Part shown: in pieces, positions 2,755-44,530 of the stretch
Layout: every line of letters starts with the position of its first letter
How positions within the stretch are numbered: position 1 is the first letter of the stretch
Source of the DNA: Escherichia phage ClaudiaMuster_Bas77
DNA length: 46,037 bases
Sequence record: PQ850598.1
Direction: 5' to 3' (one strand)
Made by a program: the position numbers and the translations under genes
Notes under the pieces: model-generated
Told to the model about the DNA's origin: nothing
What the model saw: the letters and a program-made list of their open reading frames with translations, nothing else
Databases searched by the model: none

Positions 2755-2961
2755 ATGCGCAGCTATGCAGGATTCACACAGGAGGAAAAAGAGCAGGTTT
2801 ATTCACTGGCTCGGGCTGGTGTGCCTGATGATGTGATTTGCCGTCGGTATGACATCGACGAGGATTTCCTGCTGCGCGTTTTGGATGACGTTTTCGTTAA
2901 CCTGCAGGAGAAGCGCGGGTACAAGGGTATCTGCTGCAAGAATGATTTTTTGAGAGGGTGA
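2755..2961 (+). CDS. hypothetical protein (68 aa)
   Basis: Track ORF 2695..2961 begins inside the promoter; ATG at 2755 with GGAG 9 nt upstream (MRSYAGFTQEEKEQ...). Confidence 0.5.
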   Translation: MRSYAGFTQEEKEQVYSLARAGVPDDVICRRYDIDEDFLLRVLDDVFVNLQEKRGYKGICCKNDFLRG

Positions 2962-3167
2962 TTATGAGGGGTTTTGTAAGAGATTTCCTGTTTATTGGCA
3001 TTAAGTACACCATTGCACTGGTGATTGCTGTTCCGCTTATCTGGTTGATTAGATGGGAGGAGCCAAGTATTGATGACATTATAAACTGGCAGGTTTTCAG
3101 ACTTGTTATCGGCTTGTGGATTATTTCAGCTATTGCCGCATGGTGGATTAATCATGTTCAGAAATAA
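2958..3167 (+). CDS. small membrane protein (2 predicted TM helices)
   Basis: 69-aa ORF, hydrophobic stretches FLFIGIKYTIALVIAVPLIWLI and LVIGLWIISAIAAWWI; start overlaps upstream stop (ATGA). Confidence 0.5.
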   Translation: MIMRGFVRDFLFIGIKYTIALVIAVPLIWLIRWEEPSIDDIINWQVFRLVIGLWIISAIAAWWINHVQK

Positions 3168-3561
3168 ATTAAAGAAAATAATCCGCGATGCTGCGGATAA
3201 GAAGTACACCAAAAAGATTGACATATCATTTATCGACTGCACTGGACTGTACAATCACGCATGCCACCTGAATGCAGTGAACCGTGCACGGGATGGTAGT
3301 TCGTGCGCAGTGGTTGAGGTGGTTATGATTAATGATGATGGCGCAACAGCGCATTACATCAATATGCAGTCAGACGGCGCATACATCGACTACACGCTTG
3401 GATGGCACTGGTCTGGTGCTGATTACCGGTTTGTGCGGTTTGTTCCGTTTACTGAGTGGCCCGATATCACAGGATCGTTAAGCAAACTGAAAGCTGAACT
3501 GTGTAAGCCAGTGGCTAAATGGCAGAGGTTATTGATGGTAACTGATGGTGAACTTTGTTGA
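3154..3561 (+). CDS. hypothetical protein (135 aa)
   Basis: Track ORF 3103..3561; ATG at 3154 (MFRNKLKK) chosen. Confidence 0.5.
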   Translation: MFRNKLKKIIRDAADKKYTKKIDISFIDCTGLYNHACHLNAVNRARDGSSCAVVEVVMINDDGATAHYINMQSDGAYIDYTLGWHWSGADYRFVRFVPFTEWPDITGSLSKLKAELCKPVAKWQRLLMVTDGELC

Positions 3562-3569
3562 GGTGAGTG

Positions 3570-3743
3570 ATGAAAATCGAAGGTGATTACGGGCAGCATA
3601 TTATGGTTGATAAGGATTTCAAGTATGGTAACGACCTATTAGTAGTTAGGCAAACTGGTGATGTAATCGTCGTTGCAATTGAGCAAGCAGAGCAGCTTAT
3701 CGAAGTCCTGCAACGCTGGGTTAATGGTGAGGAGATTGAGTGA
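3570..3743 (+). CDS. hypothetical protein (57 aa)
   Basis: Hand-translated ORF below track cutoff: MKIEGDYGQHIMVDKDFKYGNDLLVVRQTGDVIVVAIEQAEQLIEVLQRWVNGEEIE; GGTGAG upstream; stop overlaps next start. Confidence 0.4.
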   Translation: MKIEGDYGQHIMVDKDFKYGNDLLVVRQTGDVIVVAIEQAEQLIEVLQRWVNGEEIE

Positions 3744-3928
3744 TGAGCGTTTATTTTATTCATGCTGAAGTGCTTAATGGTGGTGCTATTGTCGCAAAAA
3801 TATGTGCTGTTTCTACTGCATCTGACCCAGAAAGAGCATTTGATATGTTTTTTAATTGCGACAGGGTGAAAGGCCACGAAAGCAAAGGTCGTGATGTTGT
3901 AATTGATAAACTGGAAAAGGTGGAGTGA
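3743..3928 (+). CDS. hypothetical protein (61 aa)
   Basis: Track ORF 3740..3928; translationally coupled to neighbours. Confidence 0.4.
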   Translation: MSVYFIHAEVLNGGAIVAKICAVSTASDPERAFDMFFNCDRVKGHESKGRDVVIDKLEKVE

Positions 3929-4089
3929 TGGCACTATTCTGGTCGTTCTGGATTCCACTTAATTTTATGTTCTGGTGGGCTATGGCTGCCGGAGTGAATG
4001 AACCAAGCAGGATACATTTCATGGTTGGCTCATTTTTCGCTGTGGTAACTGGTATTGTGCCATGCTTGTTGTATCAATATTTCAAATAG
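3928..4089 (+). CDS. small hydrophobic protein (53 aa)
   Basis: Hand-translated: MALFWSFWIPLNFMFWWAMAAGVNEPSRIHFMVGSFFAVVTGIVPCLLYQYFK; ATG overlaps upstream stop. Confidence 0.4.
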   Translation: MALFWSFWIPLNFMFWWAMAAGVNEPSRIHFMVGSFFAVVTGIVPCLLYQYFK

Positions 4090-4099
4090 AGGTGGAGTG

Positions 4100-4348
4100 A
4101 TGATAGGGATAATTCTTACTCTTATCGTTACGGCGTTCTTTGTTTATATCCTGATAAGACATCAGCTTGTTTATATTGCCAGAGGAAGATTCATAAACTA
4201 CTTCTATACAGAAGACCATAATGGATATGCAGCCGGCAAGATATTCCATGAGTCGCTACCAAGCTACGATGAGATGCTGTGGAAATTCTGGGTGTGGCCT
4301 CTGTCAAAATTCTATCCGGCGTACAGAAATCGAAATCGCAATAAGTGA
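4100..4348 (+). CDS. small membrane protein (82 aa)
   Basis: Track ORF 4055..4348; ATG at 4100 (MIGIILTLIVTAFFVYILI) preceded by GGTGGAG; one clear TM helix. Confidence 0.5.
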   Translation: MIGIILTLIVTAFFVYILIRHQLVYIARGRFINYFYTEDHNGYAAGKIFHESLPSYDEMLWKFWVWPLSKFYPAYRNRNRNK

Positions 4349-4357
4349 CCATGCTAT

Positions 4358-4388
4358 AATCCCATCCAACGTGATGGGATTTTTTATT
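4358..4388 (+). terminator. rho-independent terminator-like hairpin
   Basis: AATCCCAT ... ATGGGATT stem followed by TTTTTTATT, just upstream of portal start. Confidence 0.5.
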
Positions 4389-4396
4389 GGTGACAT

Positions 4397-5809
4397 ATGT
4401 CAAAAATTGATGCATTAAACGCCTATATACGCGACCGCGTGGCGAACAATAACCGGGCGCTTCAGCAGCAGCGGCTTTGTGCTGGCGGGAAGAATCTGGA
4501 CCAGAAACGTGAGTTCATGTGGAAGGAACTGGGCTACCCGCAGGAAATAACCGCCGAGATGTTCCGCTATGCATACGAGCGACATCCAGCCGCCGCCGCT
4601 GGCATTAACCGCATTATTAATAAATGCTGGCAGAAATACCCAGAAGTGGTTGAGGATGGCGAGGATGACAAGAACTCAACGTCGTGGGAGCTGTCCATCA
4701 ACGACATGATGAAGCGCGCCTACCCGTTCATCAAGGAGGCTGACAAGCGCAACGCCATCAACCGCTATTCCGCTGTTATCCTGCAAATCCGTGACGGCAA
4801 ACAGTGGAGTGAACCGGTAGACATCACCAAAACACGCCGCATTAAAGATAAATCCATTGTTCGCTTTATCCCAGTATGGGAAGAGCAACTCCGCGTCAGC
4901 GCATGGAATAACGATGAAACAAGTGAAGACTACGGCATGCCTGAGATGTACGAATATCAGGAAAGCGCCGTAGAGGATTTCGATAGCGACGGCAAGCCTG
5001 AGCGTTCCGTGCAGATTCATCCTGATCGCATTATCATTCTGGCAGAGGGTAGCTTCGATGGCAGTATGTTCAGTGGCATCCCGATGCTACGTGCTGGCTA
5101 CAACAGCCTTATCGACATGGCTAAGGTTTCCGGTAGTTCAGCAGAAGGCTTCCTGAAGAATGCCAGCCGTCAACTGGCTGTTAACTACACGAAGGACAAC
5201 GTAACGCCAGCAAGCCTTGCACAGTCAATGGGTGTATCTCAGGATGAGCTTATTGACATCATGAATGACAATATCGAGATGCTGAATTCTGGCATTGACG
5301 CTGCACTATTTAGCATGGGCGCCGAGACTCAGGTGTTATCCGTAACGCCAGCTGACCCGAAACCAACATGGGAAGTGGCTGCCAACCAGTTCGCTGCATC
5401 AATGGCGCTTCCGTTCACCGTCATTTTCGGGCAGCAAACCGGACGCCTTGCGAGTGATGAAGACAAGATGCAGGAGGCGATGACTGCCAAGCAGCGCCGA
5501 GAAACATGGGTGGATTATGTTATCTCAATGTTCGTTGAGCGCATGATTCAGTTCGGCATCGTCGATAAAGCACCGGCAAATGGCTACAAGGTTAAGTGGG
5601 ACGACCTGCTTGCTCCATCAGAGCTGGATAAGGCGGAGTTGCTGTCTAAGCTCGCCACTGCGAACAAGTCGTTCTTTGATGCTGGTCAATCTGCGTTGCT
5701 TACCGTCGATGAGGCTCGCGGCATGGTTGGTATGGAGCCGATTGAACTTGATGAAAGTTATCGCGAAGACACGCCACCGGAAGATGAAAATGAAGATACT
5801 CCGGTTTAA
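4397..5809 (+). CDS. portal protein
   Basis: 470-aa ORF following terminase, acidic C-terminus ([14 protein letters not shown]), overlaps start of Mu F-like head morphogenesis gene; size and position typical for a portal. Confidence 0.8.
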
Positions 5810-6824: not shown

Positions 6825-7433
6825 TTAATCATCAAGTTTCACGCCGGGAATTTTGCCTGCTGCGATGGCTTCATAAATTAGCTTAGCCTCATCCTCGCGC
6901 TTGTAATCTTGCGCTACCATTTCTAATACCGCGCAGATAGATTCAAGTACAGCCTCATGCTTCCTTTCTGCTTCTGTGCGAAATGGGATGAAAACATCCT
7001 TATTGGATGGGGTTATTGCGTAGTAAATCTCACCAGATGGTCTGATAACTATTTTTTCGCCATCAAGACCAATAACCTTGACTTTTCCCCATGACGTTCC
7101 GTTGCTGATATACTCACATTCACACCCAACTGGCGGCAGTCCTTCTCCGTTCCATGCTGAATTTTTCGATGCTGCGAGCGCTGCTTTGTATTGCCAATAG
7201 GTTACTATCGACTCCTTATGGTCGGAAGATAATGGCGTAGCCCATTCTTCTCCATACCAGAAATGCACAAGGCTATTGCCAGTGTGGTGTTTCCATGAGA
7301 ACCCTTCGTAGTGTGGGTCATTCGTGTCCCATACGCACAGTGAACCGTCATTATCTTGAGTAATTGACAGCGCGTTTTGAGGCCACCCACCACGCTTAGG
7401 CAATTCTTGAACTAACAGGTCGATAAGTTTCAT
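6825..7433 (-). CDS. hypothetical protein (202 aa)
   Basis: Track ORF; last gene of minus-strand cassette 6825-8112. Confidence 0.5.
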   Translation of the reverse strand: MKLIDLLVQELPKRGGWPQNALSITQDNDGSLCVWDTNDPHYEGFSWKHHTGNSLVHFWYGEEWATPLSSDHKESIVTYWQYKAALAASKNSAWNGEGLPPVGCECEYISNGTSWGKVKVIGLDGEKIVIRPSGEIYYAITPSNKDVFIPFRTEAERKHEAVLESICAVLEMVAQDYKREDEAKLIYEAIAAGKIPGVKLDD

Positions 7434-7445
7434 TTTTGTTCTCCG

Positions 7446-7661
7446 TTAATAATTTGGCTTTACGTCTTTCATTGTTAGTGGCTTCCATCCACTTGCGATT
7501 GCAATATCAATACAATCCTCAAGCGTTTCAGCTTTTATTGGCTCACCAACTTCACTATCATCAAATTTTCTCTGTATTTGATAGCCATCTACGACATAAA
7601 GAATCTCTACAGAACCATGTAGTGTGTGCATCGACTCAAGCCATTGCAGGTGGTAGCTCAT
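7446..7661 (-). CDS. hypothetical protein (71 aa)
   Basis: Track ORF; tightly packed with neighbours on minus strand. Confidence 0.45.
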   Translation of the reverse strand: MSYHLQWLESMHTLHGSVEILYVVDGYQIQRKFDDSEVGEPIKAETLEDCIDIAIASGWKPLTMKDVKPNY

Positions 7662-7978
7662 TTTGTTCCCCCTAATGCCTTATTAACCGCAGCACGCGCA
7701 TTATCTAGAGCGCGGCGCTTACTTGATGTTGTCCAGACTTTGCCGTCTGCAGAATCGTAGCATTCAATCATTTGCTGCGTAGCAATAATCAATTCGGAAA
7801 TAAGCATGTCGCGATATGCTAACTCAGCAGCAATAGCTGATTTTGAGTGCAATGATTCAGAGCTCATGGCGCCAACATGCTGTGAATAAAAGCCACCAAT
7901 TTCATCAAGGATATCTATATCCCGCTCTGCATACAGATTATTGCTGTCAGTCATTTGATATACTCCATAATCTCGCAT
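7658..7978 (-). CDS. hypothetical protein (106 aa)
   Basis: Track ORF; start overlaps upstream small ORF. Confidence 0.5.
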   Translation of the reverse strand: MRDYGVYQMTDSNNLYAERDIDILDEIGGFYSQHVGAMSSESLHSKSAIAAELAYRDMLISELIIATQQMIECYDSADGKVWTTSSKRRALDNARAAVNKALGGTK

Positions 7979-8112
7979 TCACGCATCTGCACCAGACTAA
8001 ATGGCGCAACCACTTTGCCGCATGGGCGGATTTTGATTTGCTCAAGGCCGAACATTCCGCAGCGTCCGTTTTCTTTGAATTTGACCATTACCATAATTTC
8101 TTCCTCACTCAT
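7951..8112 (-). CDS. hypothetical protein (53 aa)
   Basis: Hand-translated from reverse complement: MSEEEIMVMVKFKENGRCGMFGLEQIKIRPCGKVVAPFSLVQMRECEIMEYIK; first gene after minus-strand promoter. Confidence 0.4.
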   Translation of the reverse strand: MSEEEIMVMVKFKENGRCGMFGLEQIKIRPCGKVVAPFSLVQMRECEIMEYIK

Positions 8113-8126
8113 CGTTTGATGTAGAT

Positions 8127-8173
8127 ACTATGCACCACCACTCAATCTACGTCAATAGCCATTGTGATAGAAT
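8127..8173. promoter_or_regulatory. divergent promoter region with TCTAC-core motifs
   Basis: Minus strand: TTGACG (rc of 8150-8155), 17-nt spacer, CATAGT (rc of 8127-8132). Plus strand: extended -10 TGaTAGAAT at 8165-8173, ahead of the lysis cassette. Confidence 0.5.
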
Positions 8174-10954: not shown

Positions 10955-11020
10955 ATCTTGACGTTTCTACATCACTTAGTCAATACTTATTGACGTAGAT
11001 TGTACCACAACGGAAAAGGT
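10955..11020. promoter_or_regulatory. divergent regulatory region with GTTTCTACATCA and TTGACGTAGATTG motif copies
   Basis: Lies between divergently oriented gene starts (10930 minus, 11029 plus); contains two TTGACG hexamers and both motif variants; exact -10 elements ambiguous. Confidence 0.4.
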
Positions 11021-16935: not shown

Positions 16936-16938
16936 ACA

Positions 16939-16964
16939 AAACCCGCATCATGCGGGTTTTTTAT
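16939..16964. terminator. bidirectional rho-independent terminator
   Basis: ACCCGCAT c ATGCGGGT hairpin followed by TTTTTTATT; separates the plus-strand capsid operon from the converging minus-strand cassette. Confidence 0.65.
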
Positions 16965-16966
16965 TG

Positions 16967-17506
16967 CTACAGACGCATCGGCATAACAACAATCTTAGCA
17001 GTCTCGCCAGATGGCGCATTAAGACAGCAAACTGCGGCATTTGTGTTTCCATTAAGTTCAAATTTGATACAACTGAATTTAGGATTAAACAGCTTCGCCA
17101 CTTTCTCAACGTCAACCAGATATCCAGCATTGAAGCCAATTTCCTCTGCTGGCAAGGTCTGCTTCGGAATGACGCGATCAATATCAGGGAATCGCCCGTC
17201 AATCTCTTCACAGATACCAGCACCAACCATAACGCCAGCTTCATCATGATACGTTGCAATTTTCGACTTTGTATCAATGATGGCGTAGTCATAGCGTTTT
17301 GTTGGTGACTTGCCAATCTTGATAATCACATTTTCTGTAAGATTATTATCATGGTTTCCACCAATAAATGCGCGATGACCGTCAGTTGATGCAATACGAC
17401 CATCAGGCATAAAGCAAATGCCATTCAGGTAATATCGCACATCGTTGCGCGCCTGAAATATTAATGCTGATTCAAGTAATAGTTTGCCGATTTTTAGTTT
17501 CATCAC
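16967..17506 (-). CDS. truncated beta sliding clamp (DnaN)-like protein
   Basis: 179 aa; [54 protein letters not shown] and C-terminal IVVMPMRL match E. coli DnaN ([67 protein letters not shown]; recalled from memory). It lacks domain I and part of domain III. Confidence 0.65.
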   Translation of the reverse strand: [179 protein letters not shown]

Positions 17507-17676
17507 TTCACCTTAATCATATGCTGTTTTGCAACCTTCAGGCACTCCTCAAAAATGCCACCCTTCTTTGCGCTCTGATTGCGCTTGTAATACTGAACTG
17601 CCGCATCAATTGCCATCTGGTCGATTTCAGGCAGTTTGGTGCGTAGTTGTTTTTCAATGAATTGTTCTGGTGTCAT
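17503..17676 (-). CDS. hypothetical protein (57 aa)
   Basis: Hand-translated: MTPEQFIEKQLRTKLPEIDQMAIDAAVQYYKRNQSAKKGGIFEECLKVAKQHMIKVK; start overlaps the methyltransferase stop (TAATG), stop overlaps the clamp-like gene start. Confidence 0.4.
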   Translation of the reverse strand: MTPEQFIEKQLRTKLPEIDQMAIDAAVQYYKRNQSAKKGGIFEECLKVAKQHMIKVK

Positions 17677-18473
17677 TAAACGGACCTCATGAATGCTTTA
17701 ATGAATTCTGCTGCGACTTGTGGAACTATGGCATTGCCATAACCGCGCAATCGTCCCACTCTTGCGGATACCCCATGAGTTGCCTCGCAAAATCCGCCTG
17801 GTATGACTCTAGTTTCCTTATCTGCTCCATGGTTGGGTTTCCATGAATCCCATAAACATGAAGCCACATCTGGCGATAAAGAGTATCGTTCCTGAATTTT
17901 CCGTCCTTTCTGTAAAATGTCTTGCTGAGATCCCCGTAATCCTTCCATCCTCGCGCCGTTGGTGTCGCCCATCCTCGCGCCAAAGATGATTCTTTTCCTT
18001 TCCTGTGGAGAGCCGACGCTGCAAGCTGGCAATACTGACGCCCCGCAGGCGTAGCCTTTGTCTTCCAGGTTAAGGAATACAAAATCGAGCCAGTGCTTCC
18101 CAATTGCTGCTGCAACCTGCTCTCCAAACAGCAATTCAGGCTTGCACTCTCTGATGAGCCTGAGAAATGCTGGGGCAAGGTGTCGATCGTCGTCAAATCC
18201 GAGAGACTTACCGGCAACGCTAAACGGCTGGCAAGGTGGTGATCCTGTCCAGAGTCGAGTGCTTTCTGGTATTCCTGCCAGCTGGAGTGCAAGGGGCCAC
18301 CCTCCGATTCCGGCAAAGAAGTGACACTGTGTAAATCCTTCCAGGTCTGAAGGGGTGACTTCGGTGATTGATCGTTCATCGACATATCCGTAAGGAATTA
18401 GTTTATTGTTAATTAATTCACGCAGCCATGCCGCTGCGCCCTTGTCCCACTCATTGTAATAGTGGACCATCAT
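17676..18473 (-). CDS. DNA (cytosine-5)-methyltransferase, minimal
   Basis: C5-MTase motifs in canonical order: I FFAGIGG, IV SPPCQPFS, VI-like LFGEQV (ENV variant), VIII QERKR, X GNAIVPQV. Only ~265 aa with a short target-recognition region. Confidence 0.75.
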   Translation of the reverse strand: MMVHYYNEWDKGAAAWLRELINNKLIPYGYVDERSITEVTPSDLEGFTQCHFFAGIGGWPLALQLAGIPESTRLWTGSPPCQPFSVAGKSLGFDDDRHLAPAFLRLIRECKPELLFGEQVAAAIGKHWLDFVFLNLEDKGYACGASVLPACSVGSPQERKRIIFGARMGDTNGARMEGLRGSQQDILQKGRKIQERYSLSPDVASCLWDSWKPNHGADKETRVIPGGFCEATHGVSARVGRLRGYGNAIVPQVAAEFIKAFMRSV

Positions 18474-19282
18474 CACATCTTCTCCAGAATTGCCATCACC
18501 TCGTGAATATCAGCAACAGGAATCTGGATAAACTCCTCATTCTCTGCCACTACATGACCAGCAGGAAGAATAACGTGGTCAGCTGGCTTCAGTAACTCAA
18601 TCAGTCGGTCTACTGGCTTAATCTTTTTCGACTTAAGCACCTTCGCCGTTACCTTATCCTTGCCTTGCGCCTTCGCTTCTTCGACTGCCTCGTCGATAAC
18701 TTTAACCGCATCATCGCCATGTTCGCGAGTTACTGCTACGGCATTTGCATAGCTGATTTGCCCTGCACTGATTCGCGCTTTTACTTCGGCTGGCACATCA
18801 CCCAGTGACAGGTGCATCTGCACGTCAGAAACTGAGCGCCCTACCTTCTTGGCGATTTCCTCGTTGGTCCAGCCAAAACCCTTCAGTCGCGTGTAAGCCT
18901 TTGCGCGTTCAAACGGGTCAAGCTGCTTACCCTGACTGGACGACACCATGAAGGCGATTTTATCTGCTTCGCCTCCTGTGAAATCCTTGCACTCAATACG
19001 AACAATTGGTGCGCCACGCTCAATGGCACGCAACGCTCCGAGATAGCGATGCTGACCATCAAGAATGCGGATTCCCTTCTCGTCTGGAATAACTGTTAAT
19101 GCTGGCAATGGCTGACCTGACTCCCAGCACTGCGCGAAATACTCCACATGCTGCTCATCTGCCTCACGGATGTTGTATCCCGGCTCAAGATAGATTTGCT
19201 CAACTGGAACGAGATATGTTTTGTTAACAGCGATGCCGTTACGCGTTTCTTTGTCTGAATAGATTTTGCTGAGTGTTTTCAT
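18473..19282 (-). CDS. ParB-like nuclease-domain protein (DGQHR motif)
   Basis: Track ORF 18473..19294 (GTG); ATG at 19282. IRILDGQHRYLGALRAIERG carries the DGQHR signature of the DndB/ParB-like family; helix-turn-helix-like segment TNEEIAKKVGRSVSDV. Confidence 0.6.
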   Translation of the reverse strand: MKTLSKIYSDKETRNGIAVNKTYLVPVEQIYLEPGYNIREADEQHVEYFAQCWESGQPLPALTVIPDEKGIRILDGQHRYLGALRAIERGAPIVRIECKDFTGGEADKIAFMVSSSQGKQLDPFERAKAYTRLKGFGWTNEEIAKKVGRSVSDVQMHLSLGDVPAEVKARISAGQISYANAVAVTREHGDDAVKVIDEAVEEAKAQGKDKVTAKVLKSKKIKPVDRLIELLKPADHVILPAGHVVAENEEFIQIPVADIHEVMAILEKM

Positions 19283-19283
19283 A

Positions 19284-19481
19284 TCATTCACCACTTTCTT
19301 CTAACAATTGCTCATAATATGCGACGTATTCATTAGCCAGATGGTACAGGCGATCAGCAGACTTGCGTTCTGCATTGCTTAAGTCATCAATAGACTCAAT
19401 GTTGCCAATTGCATCAACACAATCATTGAAGTCTTGCTCCGTGTTACGGAATCTACAGTAGGACATGTTTGCCATAATCAC
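19284..19481 (-). CDS. hypothetical acidic protein (65 aa)
   Basis: Track ORF. Confidence 0.5.
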   Translation of the reverse strand: MIMANMSYCRFRNTEQDFNDCVDAIGNIESIDDLSNAERKSADRLYHLANEYVAYYEQLLEESGE

Positions 19482-19738
19482 TCCTCGTCACCCTGAAAAA
19501 TACCGCCAAACTCTTCAACCAGTTCATCAATGCATTCGTCCGCCTCAGCGCAATTGCCAGCGGCACTCAGCAGAATATCAACAGCCTCATCGTCAGGAAT
19601 GTTGATTGCCGAGAAGAACTCAACAATGCACATTTTCACAACCTGATATTCACCTTCTGTCTGGCAAGATGCGAAACTGCAAGCGACCGCATCAATCAGC
19701 TTGGCTTTGTCATCACTTGGGTTATCAATATCAAACAT
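19478..19738 (-). CDS. hypothetical acidic protein (86 aa)
   Basis: Track ORF; first gene downstream of the minus-strand promoter; GAGGTGA RBS. Confidence 0.5.
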   Translation of the reverse strand: MFDIDNPSDDKAKLIDAVACSFASCQTEGEYQVVKMCIVEFFSAINIPDDEAVDILLSAAGNCAEADECIDELVEEFGGIFQGDEE

Positions 19739-19778: not shown

Positions 19779-19830
19779 ACTATAAACGCACCATCAATCT
19801 ACGTCAACAGGAATATGCTAAAATCATGCT
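19779..19830. promoter_or_regulatory. divergent promoter region (minus: TTGACG-17-TATAGT) with motif copies
   Basis: On the minus strand, TTGACG (rc of 19802-19807), 17-nt spacer, TATAGT (rc of 19779-19784). GTTTCTACGTCA and CAATCTACGTCAA motif copies present; plus-strand TAAAAT near 19819 precedes the 19855 gene. Confidence 0.55.
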
Positions 19831-41478: not shown

Positions 41479-41893
41479 ATTTCTTGAACTCTGGTGCTTC
41501 AGTCCAGAAGGCTACATTTCGCAGAGACTTACTCGTGTGATTGCACCAGTATATTCCTGAGTCATCATACTTGGCAGTAACCTTGACGCGATCAGTATCA
41601 ATAATAACAACCTCCTGCCCATCTTTAGGGTCGAAAAGACGCGCATCCTTCCAGTTAGCAATCTCATTAAGGGAAAGAAGAACATAGCCTGGAAGATAAG
41701 CGCCGACATCAGCAATGTGAACTATTGTTCGCTCCGTTCTCTCTCCTGTGTAGTCGCCATTCCACTCATAAAGAATAACCGTGTCTCCAACCTTAAAATC
41801 ACGATCGTTCTTCCTTAGTTCCGCCTTCTTGTGTCCGGTAACAACAGGCCAGAAGTGCTCAGGTAAGATTTTTAGTTCGTGTGTTTTGCTCAT
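41477..41893 (-). CDS. DUF3850 / ASCH-like domain protein
   Basis: 138 aa; N-terminal HELKILPEHFWPVVTGHKKAELRKNDRDFKVGDTVILYEW fits the DUF3850 (ASCH-fold) signature as recalled. Confidence 0.5.
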   Translation of the reverse strand: MSKTHELKILPEHFWPVVTGHKKAELRKNDRDFKVGDTVILYEWNGDYTGERTERTIVHIADVGAYLPGYVLLSLNEIANWKDARLFDPKDGQEVVIIDTDRVKVTAKYDDSGIYWCNHTSKSLRNVAFWTEAPEFKK

Positions 41894-43470
41894 TTCAACC
41901 CCCTCATAAATCTCATGCGCTTAACAGCAGCAGAAAGATAATTTCTAACCGTTGAGTTCATTCGCAGTCCATCCCATGAACCATCGCTGCACATCTTAAT
42001 CGCTCTTGGGTTATCTCTGTCCAGCATTAGTGGTGAATGCTTATTCTCCTCAATCGCAAGAAGAACCTCATAAACAAATTTATCAGGTGTTAGTGTGATG
42101 TTATTAGAGTCAGCAGAATTAATTATCTTTTTAATTCTATCACGACACAGCTTGTTCTTTATAACAGACAAGTAAGGCGTTTTAATGAATGCCTGTGACT
42201 CACAAATTCGCTTAATTTTTTCTACAATGTTCTCCCATTCAGTATTTTCAAGTCCATCAAACTCCTGTTCGCCCTCAAGGAATCTTTGCAGACCAGCGAG
42301 ATGCTCAAGAACCACGATATATCCCCATTCGACATGCTCCATCGTAACTGCTGGCGTCATTCCACGGCGACTTGACAGATCTGCGTAAGCCGCAAGAGTT
42401 GCAAGGTCTACAATCATCAGCCCCATGCGCGGGATAACGTCACCAACAACACCATCGCGATCGCCAAGCTCACTTTCCAGTTTCATAGACAGAGATCTGT
42501 GCAGCTTTTTCACTTCATCATCAGCCCATACAGCGTTAGTTTTCGCGGTAAGAATCCTACCTTTCCACTCATTGATTATTTTTCTTGAAATTGTGCCGCT
42601 AACTTCCACATCCTTCATCGCTGGCATTTCCTCACCAGCAAGATGTCCAAGCTGGAACAGCACTCGCCCCATACCGCCATCTTTCTGCCATGAACGCGCA
42701 GCATCTATTCCCTGCTCTGGAGTGACAGTAATCAGCGGAACAAATTTTGCGTTTTCAATTCCACCGTCTTTTGTTGCAATTTCGTATTCATTCATTGCCG
42801 ACTTGAGCGCGCGACCAACGCTGTGGTCCATCATCGCAAGGCGCTTATAATCTATGACGCCTTTACCATCATCACCACCAGTGAGTGGAACTATCCATCC
42901 CTCAGCGCTTGCTGCCGCCATAATGCGTTTTGGGTTTTGTTCCCAAGTAAGGTTTTCAAGCAACTCCTTTATTATTGGCCTGTTAGGAACCCACACTCCG
43001 CCGTCAGTAAGACCTCTATACCACGCCATAGTGCCGCCAAGATATGCATTACGCGGGTTGTTCCAGTCTTCAAGATGTTGCTTATCATCGTTCACAACGT
43101 AGAGCAAAGACCCACCTCCAGCAATAAGGTCTAACTGCATCTGTTTTGTCGAGGTTGATTTAGATGCGCAAACTCTGGACCCTATTCCCAGCGCGTTGGC
43201 ATATGCCCTGACGAAACTCACCGGCGCACCCTTACCTGCACCAGAGCGAGCTACCAGAAATATGCCGGTATTGCAGATACTACCTGTTGGACCAATCAAA
43301 TATCGGCCAGCCATCGCCTGAGTAAGGCCCAATGCACCAGTTAAACGATACCTCTCACCATCATTACGGCGCTCAAAGTTTTTCGCAATCTCATCCATAA
43401 ACTCACCAAGTGCACCAGGAGCATCCCTATTCATACCCATAGCCATGGACTCAAAATCAATAGCGCCCAT
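41890..43470 (-). CDS. large hypothetical protein with P-loop-like motif
   Basis: Track ORF 41890..43485; ATG at 43470 overlaps upstream stop; ARSGAGKGA glycine-rich loop; no confident family. Confidence 0.45.
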   Translation of the reverse strand: MGAIDFESMAMGMNRDAPGALGEFMDEIAKNFERRNDGERYRLTGALGLTQAMAGRYLIGPTGSICNTGIFLVARSGAGKGAPVSFVRAYANALGIGSRVCASKSTSTKQMQLDLIAGGGSLLYVVNDDKQHLEDWNNPRNAYLGGTMAWYRGLTDGGVWVPNRPIIKELLENLTWEQNPKRIMAAASAEGWIVPLTGGDDGKGVIDYKRLAMMDHSVGRALKSAMNEYEIATKDGGIENAKFVPLITVTPEQGIDAARSWQKDGGMGRVLFQLGHLAGEEMPAMKDVEVSGTISRKIINEWKGRILTAKTNAVWADDEVKKLHRSLSMKLESELGDRDGVVGDVIPRMGLMIVDLATLAAYADLSSRRGMTPAVTMEHVEWGYIVVLEHLAGLQRFLEGEQEFDGLENTEWENIVEKIKRICESQAFIKTPYLSVIKNKLCRDRIKKIINSADSNNITLTPDKFVYEVLLAIEENKHSPLMLDRDNPRAIKMCSDGSWDGLRMNSTVRNYLSAAVKRMRFMRGLK

Positions 43471-43760
43471 CAATATACCCTCCATACTCGCAAGAATTTG
43501 CCAGGGATAATACCTTGTTTCACAGTTACCACCGCACCAGCCCTGTCAGCCTCAATTTTTATCGCCTTCTGAAGTGACGTCATTGTCATCTGAAAACCTC
43601 GCTCTATATCGTATGCGTAGCACCCATCTCTTCCACCAATCAAAATTGAAGTTGAATACCCGTTCTCAAAGTAAAACTGACACCCATCAGGAGCTGTAAG
43701 ATTATTTATCACGTCGTGAGCAAGAGATGTCGTGACAGGGAATATCTGAGCGCAACTCAT
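43470..43760 (-). CDS. hypothetical protein (96 aa)
   Basis: Track ORF 43470..43772; ATG at 43760 with GGAGGTAGGT RBS. Confidence 0.45.
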   Translation of the reverse strand: MSCAQIFPVTTSLAHDVINNLTAPDGCQFYFENGYSTSILIGGRDGCYAYDIERGFQMTMTSLQKAIKIEADRAGAVVTVKQGIIPGKFLRVWRVY

Positions 43761-43762
43761 AC

Positions 43763-44002
43763 CTACCTCCACCCCATGTGTAACAATAAAATTTCGTCTT
43801 TATCAACATTCACCAACACCTTGATACCCATATCCATTGAAACAATACTGACATTTGTTCGAAAACTCGGTAACCCCATCGCGCGCGCACGTTCCCAATC
43901 TTCACCACAAACAAACCACCCATCATGCGTTCTCCTCAGGCGCTTAAGTAACCCGTACACCCACTCAAGATTTGACCCTTTACGGTAATTTAGTTCTTTC
44001 AT
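43763..44002 (-). CDS. hypothetical protein (79 aa)
   Basis: Track ORF 43763..44056; ATG at 44002 with GGAGATGGAGG RBS (MKELNYRKGSNLEW...). Confidence 0.45.
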   Translation of the reverse strand: MKELNYRKGSNLEWVYGLLKRLRRTHDGWFVCGEDWERARAMGLPSFRTNVSIVSMDMGIKVLVNVDKDEILLLHMGWR

Positions 44003-44099
44003 ACTTACCTCCATCTCCAGTGACTCTAATTTTATATAAATAAAAAAGATATGCAATTCTAATATGTGCTGGCTGTACAGTTTGGCTAATTTTTGCTCG

Positions 44100-44510
44100 A
44101 TTTATACCGTCTTTACCTGGTTTTTACCGTGCTATTTTTGATGCAACTAATTGATTAATAAGATTTTACCGGTTTTACCGGATTTCTTAAGTGGTATTTT
44201 AATTATTAAGATTGGCAGTGTATTAATTTGATCTAATTTTAATAAACTTAAATAAAATCAATATATTAATATGAATGAATAACTTACTTACCTCTATAGA
44301 ATTTACCGGGTAAAACCGGTAACTCCTCCGCAAGCCGCGCCATTGCTGGCTTCATTTTTACCACCTGTAGGTAAATACAGTAGTTTTTAAGTGATAATTG
44401 TTTTGGTAAGCTGTTGATTACCGGTGCTTTATTTAAAAAACCGGCATTTACCGGTATTTTGTGGAGTGATTAATAAGTGCGCAATTAGTCCTTGTTTACC
44501 AGAATCAACA
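44100..44510. repeat. iteron array (TTTACCGG core, at least 9 copies) flanking an AT-rich core
   Basis: Copies near 44112, 44122, 44163-44186 (tandem pair), 44301-44328 (palindromic pair), 44354, 44416, 44436-44459 (pair) and 44493; AT-rich stretch 44200-44290; no ORF. Confidence 0.6.
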
Positions 44511-44530
44511 AGTGCGAAACCTAAATAATG

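Follow-up and report, generated by a model that had tools for sequence, protein, structure and literature searches.

A one-gene cassette beside a ParB-like gene in a Skatevirus-like phage encodes a predicted orphan DNA cytosine-C5 methyltransferase with rearranged motifs

Two adjacent genes of Escherichia phage ClaudiaMuster_Bas77 (sequence record PQ850598.1), one for a predicted DNA cytosine-C5 methyltransferase (MTase) and one for a ParB-like DNA-binding protein, are the subject of this report; they lie in a stretch of 46,037 nucleotides (nt) that was analysed as a whole and is called the window here. The window comes from a Skatevirus-like virulent siphovirus. A 2.9-kb stretch around both genes is 96-99% identical to Escherichia phages Bas78, Bas79, Bas80, ZCEC08 and HC6, and 87% of the whole window is covered by Bas79, at 96-99% identity. 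Both open reading frames (ORFs) are present and both are on the minus strand, which an earlier reading made without database searches (the sequence-only reading) had left unstated. The MTase ORF opens with a GTG at 18476, giving 266 amino acids (aa), and the likelier start is the ATG at 18473 (265 aa), 8 nt past a GGAG; the 265-aa form is that annotated in Bas79, and our residue numbers refer to the 266-aa version. For the ParB-like gene the annotated start is an ATG at 19282 (269 aa), which an ORF finder extends to a GTG at 19294 (273 aa). Its stop codon (TGA, 18475-18473) overlaps the MTase start, as the sequence-only reading had stated, and the MTase stop overlaps the next ATG in like manner. 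GenBank records of relatives already name the two products "DNA methyltransferase" and "ParB-like partition protein". The two genes and the elements of the MTase, whose motifs I-III and X would bind the cofactor S-adenosylmethionine (SAM), are the following.

17676-18476, minus strand: orphan C5-cytosine DNA MTase gene as predicted, GTG start at 18476, 266 aa (PF00145, phrog_363, AlphaFold2 (AF2) model, cassette borders)
18473-19294, minus strand: gene for a ParB/Noc/KorB-like DNA-binding protein (HTH_ParB, KorB, phrog_1033, Spo0J, AF2/Foldseek)
18342-18467, minus strand: N-terminal segment of the MTase, residues 4-45, with motif II (YYNEWD, E9) and motif III (VDERSI, D33) ahead of motif I (de-permutation test)
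18297-18323, minus strand: motif I, HFFAGIGGW, the SAM-binding loop, residues 52-60, between motifs III and IV (aligns with HhaI 3-32)
18219-18245, minus strand: motif IV, GSPPCQPFS, residues 78-86, with the catalytic Cys82 (aligns with the HhaI PCQ motif)
18114-18128, minus strand: motif VI, FGEQV, residues 117-121, with Glu119 kept and Gln in place of the usual Asn (family conservation)
17991-18005, minus strand: motif VIII, QERKR, residues 158-162 (aligns with HhaI QKRER)
17772-17975, minus strand: variable region, putatively for target recognition, residues 168-235, 68 aa (low model confidence, hypervariable among homologues)
17721-17738, minus strand: motif X, GNAIVP, residues 247-252, with Asn248 at the cofactor-discriminating position (family conservation)

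The first finding of this analysis is that the MTase looks catalytically competent, judging from its residues, and that it is a member of a family, very large and spread over phages and prophages, to which gp58 of phage N15 also belongs. It matches PF00145 at E=1e-21 (78.2 bits against a cutoff of 22, residues 70-172 on profile positions 59-165) and phrog_363 at 3e-75; with NCBIfam TIGR00675 (dcm) it scores 63.8 bits, below the cutoff of 100.65, and 88.9 bits, still below, once its chain is de-permuted as described below. The best matches in sequence and structure are the PF00145 enzymes M.HhaI and M.HaeIII, M.HhaI being the best solved relative (phmmer E=4.5e-12). The AF2 model has seven strands and a mean predicted local distance difference test score (pLDDT) of 82.5, rising above 90 in the core; searched against the PDB with Foldseek, it finds M.HhaI best, together with M.HaeIII, DNMT1 and similar enzymes. 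Shared with M.HhaI and M.HaeIII are the FxGxG signature, the motif II Glu, the motif III Asp, the Cys of PCQ, the motif VI Glu, RxR and GN. When 90 family representatives at about 50% identity were aligned, N8, D33, H52, F54, G56, W60, S79, P81, C82, Q83, S86, E119, Q120, V121, R160 and R162 were invariant and E9, G58, G247, N248, A249, I250, V251 and P252 were conserved in at least 90%; the catalytic and cofactor set (F54/G56/G58, E9, D33, C82, E119, R160/R162 and N248) is complete in the MTase. The sequence-only description of an enzyme of some 265 aa with motifs I, IV, VIII and X intact is thereby confirmed, the PF00145 score standing far above its cutoff.

The same description had drawn attention to motif VI, which reads EQV rather than ENV. 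The variant is present; as an oddity it falls away, since it is unchanged in all 90 representatives and in 18 close homologues, a pattern that marks EQV as the hallmark of this family's motif VI and not as a defect. All that the ENV Asn does in M.HhaI is to hydrogen-bond the Pro80 carbonyl, which positions motif IV, and the N167A variant of Dnmt3a retains cofactor and DNA binding with a rate about tenfold lower (PMC4802922). This Asn is thus structural, not catalytic, and Gln retains the amide, so nothing in EQV points to a dead enzyme. The family is represented by 3063 clusters (at 50% identity) that match the MTase at E<=1e-30. Its named member N15 gp58, of PHROG 363 ("DNA methyltransferase"; in prophages "DNA cytosine methyltransferase"), shares the N-terminus (FYNEF), the position of motif I, FGEQV and YGNAIV, and these proteins are phage orphans; gp58 differs from the MTase in being 37% identical, in having a variable region 130 aa longer and in adjoining a DUF4406 gene and lysis genes, not ParB. 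Beside the MTase, too, there is no cognate restriction endonuclease: it is flanked by the ParB-like gene and a 57-aa ORF, scans of the operon matched no nuclease family, and the HNH genes of Bas79 are located elsewhere in its genome. The lack of a partner restriction enzyme is one of the differences from M.HhaI and M.HaeIII; others are EQV itself, the fusion of motifs IX and X into RVGRLRGYGNAIVP, the very short (68 aa) and poorly ordered variable region, and the order II-III-I-IV in place of I-II-III-IV.

This order is the second finding, and the sequence-only reading missed it, as it missed the swapping of the variable region. Along the chain the motifs run II-III-I-IV-VI-VIII-X. In the native phmmer alignment HhaI 3-32 (motif I) pairs with residues 39-68 and HhaI 69-174 with residues 69-171, and HhaI 33-68 (motifs II-III) has no counterpart at the expected place. 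The N-terminus of the MTase, VHYYNEWDKGAA...YVDERSITEV, resembles HhaI VYSNEWDKYAQ...EGDITQV, and it aligns to HhaI 33-68 only once placed behind motif I. In our de-permutation test, residues 46-68 were moved in front of residues 1-45. The PF00145 score rose from 78.2 bits (profile 59-165) for the native chain to 101.8 bits (profile 5-165); deletion of residues 1-45 gave 79.1 bits (profile 59-165), and the rearranged chain gave 80.8 bits when the 1-45 segment was shuffled and 84.5 bits when it was reversed (profile 5-165 in both). The rearranged MTase aligns to HhaI 15-175 in a single colinear stretch, with E falling from 4.5e-12 to 6.9e-18, and TIGR00675 gains likewise, from 63.8 to 88.9 bits. 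Other members of the family also gain on rearrangement, with 63.9 bits (native 58.3) for N15 gp58 and 53.4 bits (native 38.2) for a metagenomic member of 42% identity, from a locus that we call L061; among the best 150 cluster representatives, nearly all begin at query residue 3-6, that is, at motif II. The secondary structure of the AF2 model (strand 4-8, helix 12-23, strand 30-33, strand 48-53, helix 59-66, strand 75-78, motif I lying on the strand at 48-53 and the helix at 59-66) fits the order beta2-alphaB-beta3-beta1-alphaA-beta4 that such a chain would be predicted to have. Foldseek confirms the C5-MTase fold; as it aligns sequentially (TM-score about 0.42), the spatial equivalence of the transposed strands is outside its reach.

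Taken at the level of sequence, these comparisons show that the beta1/alphaA segment has moved into the gap between motifs III and IV, a non-circular permutation that is a feature of the family. Such a rewiring would seem to ask little of the topology: beta1 runs parallel to beta4 as its next neighbour, and the crossover from beta3 to beta1 would resemble the canonical one from beta3 to beta4. The permuted order is also why standard profiles reach only half of these proteins or score them below cutoffs. C5-MTases with a non-canonical block order have been described, namely M.BssHII, M.Alw26I, M2.Eco31I, M.Esp3I and M2.BsaI; however, these are circular permutants, opened within the variable region so that motifs IX-X precede I-VIII, and a 2018 survey found the natural C5-MTase permutants to be all of this one circular type (PMC5944983), whereas in the MTase a single internal segment (motif I and helix A) has moved. 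We found no description of the II-III-I-IV arrangement in the literature searched, though it may have been described before. Thousands of phage and prophage C5-MTases, N15 gp58 included, carry the SAM-binding half of the fold in the order II-III-I-IV.

The third finding concerns the variable region. The sequence-only reading had called the target-recognition region very short, and it was right: from motif VIII to the C-terminal conserved block there are about 70 aa, modelled at pLDDT 45-72, and the 68 aa of the variable region belong to the shortest class in the family, of which the 265-aa MTase is one of the smallest versions. Across the 120 closest homologues the median identity is 90% in the core and 89% in the C-terminal block and falls to 14% in the middle region, which is 68 to 168 aa long; in 109 of them a core of 85% identity or more is coupled with a middle region below 35%. 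With Klebsiella phages, only nt 1-518 of the MTase gene are shared (at about 91%), the breakpoint lying just past motif VIII. The variable region is swapped as a cassette between related phages on a near-constant core, which is the pattern that exchange of specificity modules would produce. Homologues of the short type make up a separate conserved subgroup that can be followed to an overall identity of 59%; this type is therefore a selected module, not a truncation. A core of about 90% identity bearing unrelated recognition regions is, in effect, one scaffold on which nature has assembled a library of specificities. The moderate, specialist interest of the locus lies here, at the level of the family, in a permuted order and a swappable recognition region; as the sequence-only reading had framed it, the finding is ordinary, and the two genes make up no system.

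The MTase gene is itself a precise mobile cassette, one gene long, dropped beside a core ParB-like gene. Homology between the window and Salmonella phage LPST10 stops at 17676 and 18470, exactly the borders of the MTase ORF; LPST10 has a 72-aa ORF in the slot and retains the ParB gene. The full-length MTase allele occurs in 12 phage records from two phage groups, eight Skatevirus-like and four Kagunavirus (Bas71, Bas75, Bas76 and XY2), at 97.8-100% nt identity. Homology to the Kagunavirus genomes is confined to the MTase ORF (gene nt 14-792; in Bas75, window 17685-18463 at 97.8%), and the Bas75 copy is flanked by a 63-aa ORF and a helicase rather than by ParB. The ParB-like protein is found at 80% identity or more in about 190 phage records, most of which lack the MTase, and it is 98% identical in phages without it, such as LPSTLL. 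Its gene is part of the core set of the Skatevirus/Roufvirus cluster, independent of the MTase and no partner to it. Bas78-80 and the Kagunavirus phages Bas71, Bas75 and Bas76 are in a public collection, which thus holds the same allele with and without a neighbouring ParB.

The cassette sits in a leftward operon that reads, in order, an 86-aa anti-restriction-like gene, a 65-aa ORF, the ParB-like gene, the MTase, a 57-aa ORF and a 179-aa clamp-like gene. Its remaining features are these.

19779-19807, minus strand: sigma-70-type promoter of the leftward operon (TTGACG, 17-nt spacer, TATAGT; 10 of 12 consensus positions)
19478-19738, minus strand: first gene of the operon, 86 aa, of a PHROG family labelled "anti-restriction protein" (phrog_14587 at 1.2e-46)
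16967-17506, minus strand: last gene of the operon, 179 aa, beta-sliding-clamp-like (TIGR00663 dnaN at 3.3e-9, phrog_3007 at 2e-61)
16938-16960, no strand assigned: bidirectional terminator-like hairpin closing the operon (10-bp stem, T runs on both strands)

Stop/start overlaps of 1 or 4 nt occur at every junction of the operon, in relatives without the MTase as well, and LPST10 has the same overlaps though another gene follows its ParB. The overlap is generic to a tightly packed operon and is therefore no sign of a specific coupling between ParB and MTase.

Taken together, we put at about 0.75 the probability that the 265-aa gene is an orphan SAM-dependent DNA cytosine-C5 MTase in an accessory slot of this leftward early operon, beside an independent ParB-like core gene. 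Its most likely role, going by sequence and gene context, would be that of an early-expressed orphan anti-restriction methylase, the best inference given that its catalytic residues are conserved and that the early sigma-70 operon holds a PHROG "anti-restriction" gene. The anti-restriction system of the sequence-only reading thus survives in part: a methylase role is plausible for these same reasons, and the partner protein has to be dropped. According to this model, host RNA polymerase would transcribe the operon early, from the promoter at 19807 to the terminator at 16938. The enzyme would flip out a cytosine, with Cys82 attacking C6, Glu119 protonating N3 and Arg160 and Arg162 positioning the base; a methyl group would be transferred from SAM, bound by motifs I-III and X, at a site that the 68-aa variable region would determine. 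Phage DNA fresh from replication might thereby be shielded from restriction enzymes that are blocked by the modified site.

Several points weigh against this model. In the Guernseyvirinae and BASEL literature we found a measured activity or a known target site for no member of the MTase family. The 2025 BASEL study reports marked sensitivity of its Skatevirus isolates (Bas77-81) to the restriction systems in its panel and makes no mention of any methyltransferase (PMC11990801); any protection must therefore be site-specific, and none was seen with that panel. On the three-dimensional side of the rearrangement, the analysis covered the order of secondary structure and the sequential Foldseek matches (TM-score about 0.42), and the variable region, which would read the DNA, is short, rich in R, Q, G and S and poorly modelled. 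Finally, in L061 a ParB-like gene is directly upstream of a distant MTase relative, so the adjacency can recur.

Methylation may instead serve the biology of the phage itself, acting on the timing of transcription, replication or packaging or on host DNA rather than protecting against restriction, and this we consider unlikely. It would suit an orphan enzyme with no cognate nuclease, the continued sensitivity of Skatevirus isolates to the restriction systems tested (PMC11990801) and an early operon that also holds DNA-binding and replication-related genes. However, a gene that is dispensable and patchy among close relatives argues against a role in the core life cycle, and the rapid exchange of recognition regions, together with the Dam or N4/N6 methylases that frequently neighbour family members in other phages, fits a restriction arms race.

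The relation between the two genes was at the centre of the sequence-only reading, which proposed a coupled pair in which the MTase has a specificity or regulatory partner. That proposal does not hold, in view of the cassette borders, the ParB-less Kagunavirus copy of the allele and a survey of 80 diverse IMG/VR viral loci of the MTase family. The search for ParB in these loci used a hidden Markov model (HMM) of the ParB-like family, in normal mode and with --max, regular expressions matching the arginine patch, and Pfam on the neighbours (73 upstream, 72 downstream). A ParB-like neighbour was found in 1 of 80 loci, and a conserved ParB-MTase gene pair was rejected on this count. The exception is L061 (IMGVR_UViG_3300049203_000028), an unrelated 50-kb viral contig in which a ParB-like gene at 2784-4004 (407 aa, DGHHR and TQSGKG, 30% identical to ours) precedes a member of the MTase family at 4001-4816, 42% identical, its stop overlapping the start of the latter. 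Another locus, L020, has a weak candidate at 7119-8006 (DGVHR), for which no ParB family is among the Pfam families listed. The upstream neighbours include Dam, D12 and N6_N4 methylases (six in total) and NinB, and the downstream ones helicases, replication proteins and four methylases; what recurs most often is a further DNA methyltransferase, in about 10 of the 145 neighbours, and the neighbourhoods are otherwise heterogeneous.

It is accordingly quite unlikely that the MTase, whose target-recognition domain (TRD) is so short, is loaded, targeted or regulated by a DNA-bound ParB-like protein. Adjacency with overlapping stop and start in one operon would favour such a partnership, as would the same adjacency in related Klebsiella phages, its single recurrence in L061 with a ParB-like protein of 30% identity, the unusual shortness of the variable region and the observation that ParB-domain proteins are often fused or adjacent to phage DNA methyltransferases for reasons not understood (PMC12783734). 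Yet most of the relatives that lack the MTase retain the ParB gene, at 98% identity, the Kagunavirus phages carry the same allele with no ParB adjoining, just one of the 73 upstream neighbours is ParB-like and none appears in the Pfam families listed for the 72 downstream, and overlapping junctions are generic in the operon; as for the short TRD, its retention in 59%-identical homologues shows only that it is a selected module. A shade more doubtful still is a two-protein module for ParB-guided cytosine methylation, in which, in the Skatevirus/Roufvirus lineage and independently in L061, the ParB-like protein would recruit or license the short-TRD MTase on phage DNA, ParB and its DNA site supplying some of the targeting of which the 68-aa variable region is incapable. 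Were it true, it would offer an explanation of the frequent company that ParB-domain proteins keep with DNA methyltransferases of phages.

The ParB fold that the sequence-only reading assigned to the upstream protein is borne out. The protein matches HTH_ParB (2.6e-11), KorB (4.4e-6) and phrog_1033 (2.6e-90), and aligns with solved Spo0J/ParB at E=6e-13 over Spo0J residues 42-199, which comprise the N-terminal domain and the helix-turn-helix (HTH). Its AF2 model (pLDDT 86) has ParB, Noc and KorB as top Foldseek matches, with target-normalised TM-scores of 0.71 (6t1f) and 0.68 (the KorB-KorA complex 8qa9). With the chromosomal and plasmid proteins of this kind, which are cytidine triphosphate (CTP)-dependent DNA clamps, it thus shares an N-terminal ParB/Srx domain and an HTH domain. 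Two elements set it apart.

19046-19060, minus strand: DGQHR, residues 79-83, in place of the ParB arginine patch GERRxR (aligns with GERRY of T. thermophilus Spo0J)
18929-18940, minus strand: SSQG, residues 119-122, in place of ParB box III, ENLQ(RE) (aligns with ENLQRE)

In the Spo0J alignment DGQHRYL falls over the arginine patch GERRYRA and SSSQGK over ENLQRE, and both replacements are invariant in the phage family: D79, G80, H82, R83, S119, S120, Q121 and G122 do not vary among 38 homologues, whose consensus is DGHHR. The nucleotide pocket (DG[Q/H]HR, SSQG) thus appears conserved and yet unlike that of CTPase ParBs, which suggests, from sequence conservation, a conserved ligand or function other than the canonical ParB one. 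The protein differs from ParB, Noc and KorB further in that it has no ParA partner (no ParA-type Walker A motif in the window, no ParA annotated in Bas79) and no repeated palindromic site, and in that its host is a virulent phage; no integrase is annotated in the 96-99% identical Bas79 genome. Perfect palindromes whose arms reach 7 nt or more number 16 in the window, against a mean of 7.7 and a maximum of 14 in shuffled sequence, and all are unique, every palindrome of 14-16 bp occurring once, so a repeated palindromic parS or operator was rejected. Regarding the DndB-type DGQHR signature proposed earlier, the pentapeptide is there (D79-R83), as is membership of the ParB/Srx superfamily; affiliation to the DndB/DGQHR family is not, and was rejected. 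The TIGR03187 profile scores 15.6 bits against a cutoff of 58.85 (E=0.01) and covers residues 65-96 (32 residues) only, no PADLOC model matches the protein, its fold is that of ParB/Noc/KorB with a ParB-type HTH, and there are no dnd genes. The ParB-like protein is probably a phage DNA-binding regulator or organiser.

The sequence-only reading had also allowed for a non-canonical modification module. The relevant comparison is with CmoX, a phage C5-carboxymethyltransferase defined by SPPC and by an Arg at the position of HhaI N304, which binds the carboxyl group of carboxy-SAM (PMC12783734). The MTase is a homologue of CmoX (PDB 8yf3), which is among its structural and sequence matches, and it has the SPPC of motif IV (S79-P80-P81-C82) as SpCmoX does; E. 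coli makes carboxy-SAM, and many CmoX contigs hold a ParB-domain gene (PMC12783734). That the enzyme installs a non-methyl group, such as 5-carboxymethylcytosine from host carboxy-SAM, is nevertheless very improbable. The defining Arg is replaced by Asn248, Asn being found here in at least 90% of the family, and SpCmoX R350N is inactive with either cofactor (PMC12783734). Similarity to HhaI (E=4.5e-12) is far above that to CmoX (E=1e-3), and neither CmoA, CmoY nor an amide ligase is annotated in Bas79, nor was a CmoA or amide ligase found in the scanned window-specific segment 41477-44056. Carboxymethylation of the CmoX type, raised by SPPC and the match to 8yf3, was rejected on Asn248 and the missing CmoA and ligase, and with it went the non-canonical module; transfer of a methyl group from SAM is the supported prediction. 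Least credible of all is that the MTase is an inactive or decaying remnant with EQV, a rearranged N-terminus and a minimal TRD: partial Pfam coverage (residues 70-172), a TIGR00675 score below cutoff and a poorly modelled variable region could be read that way, but the catalytic and cofactor residues are invariant or at least 90% conserved across a large family, the allele is 97.8-100% identical (nt) in the 12 records from two phage groups, the permutation accounts for the partial coverage and the Asn of ENV is not catalytic (PMC4802922).

Other observations concern the operon and the rest of the window. The 179-aa protein, which also has weak DNA_pol3_beta_3 and DNA_pol3_beta_2 matches, is named "RusA-like Holliday junction resolvase" in PHROG 3007 and hence in the annotations of Bas79 and LPST10, a label that is probably a propagated mistake for a half-size clamp-like protein; such a protein is found here in a phage without an annotated DNA polymerase. 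Upstream of ParB, segment 19283-19735 (minus strand), comprising the 65-aa ORF and the 86-aa phrog_14587 gene, is a second mosaic slot in the same operon: LPST10 has it, and Bas79 lacks it and carries an unrelated 624-nt gene instead. The 12-mer AATCTACGTCAA occurs 15 times in the window with up to two mismatches, where 3.8 occurrences are expected and none of 100 shuffles gave more than 8; copies lie at 8144-8155 (plus), 10990-11001 (minus) and 19796-19807 (plus), and there are 12 near-copies, for example at 8116, 38071, 44531 and 44548. It was considered as a ParB site and rejected, being the reverse complement of TTGACGTAGATT, the extended -35 element of sigma-70-type promoters, and part of the near-consensus promoter (19807-19779) of the ParB/MTase operon; TTGACGTAGATT is probably a shared early-promoter signature of the phage. 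Another mosaic replacement is found in the replication module, where a 3-kb segment at 41481-44528 that is not common to Bas79 encodes a 531-aa primase-like protein (phrog_3022) and a 138-aa protein of phrog_986 ("RNA-binding protein").

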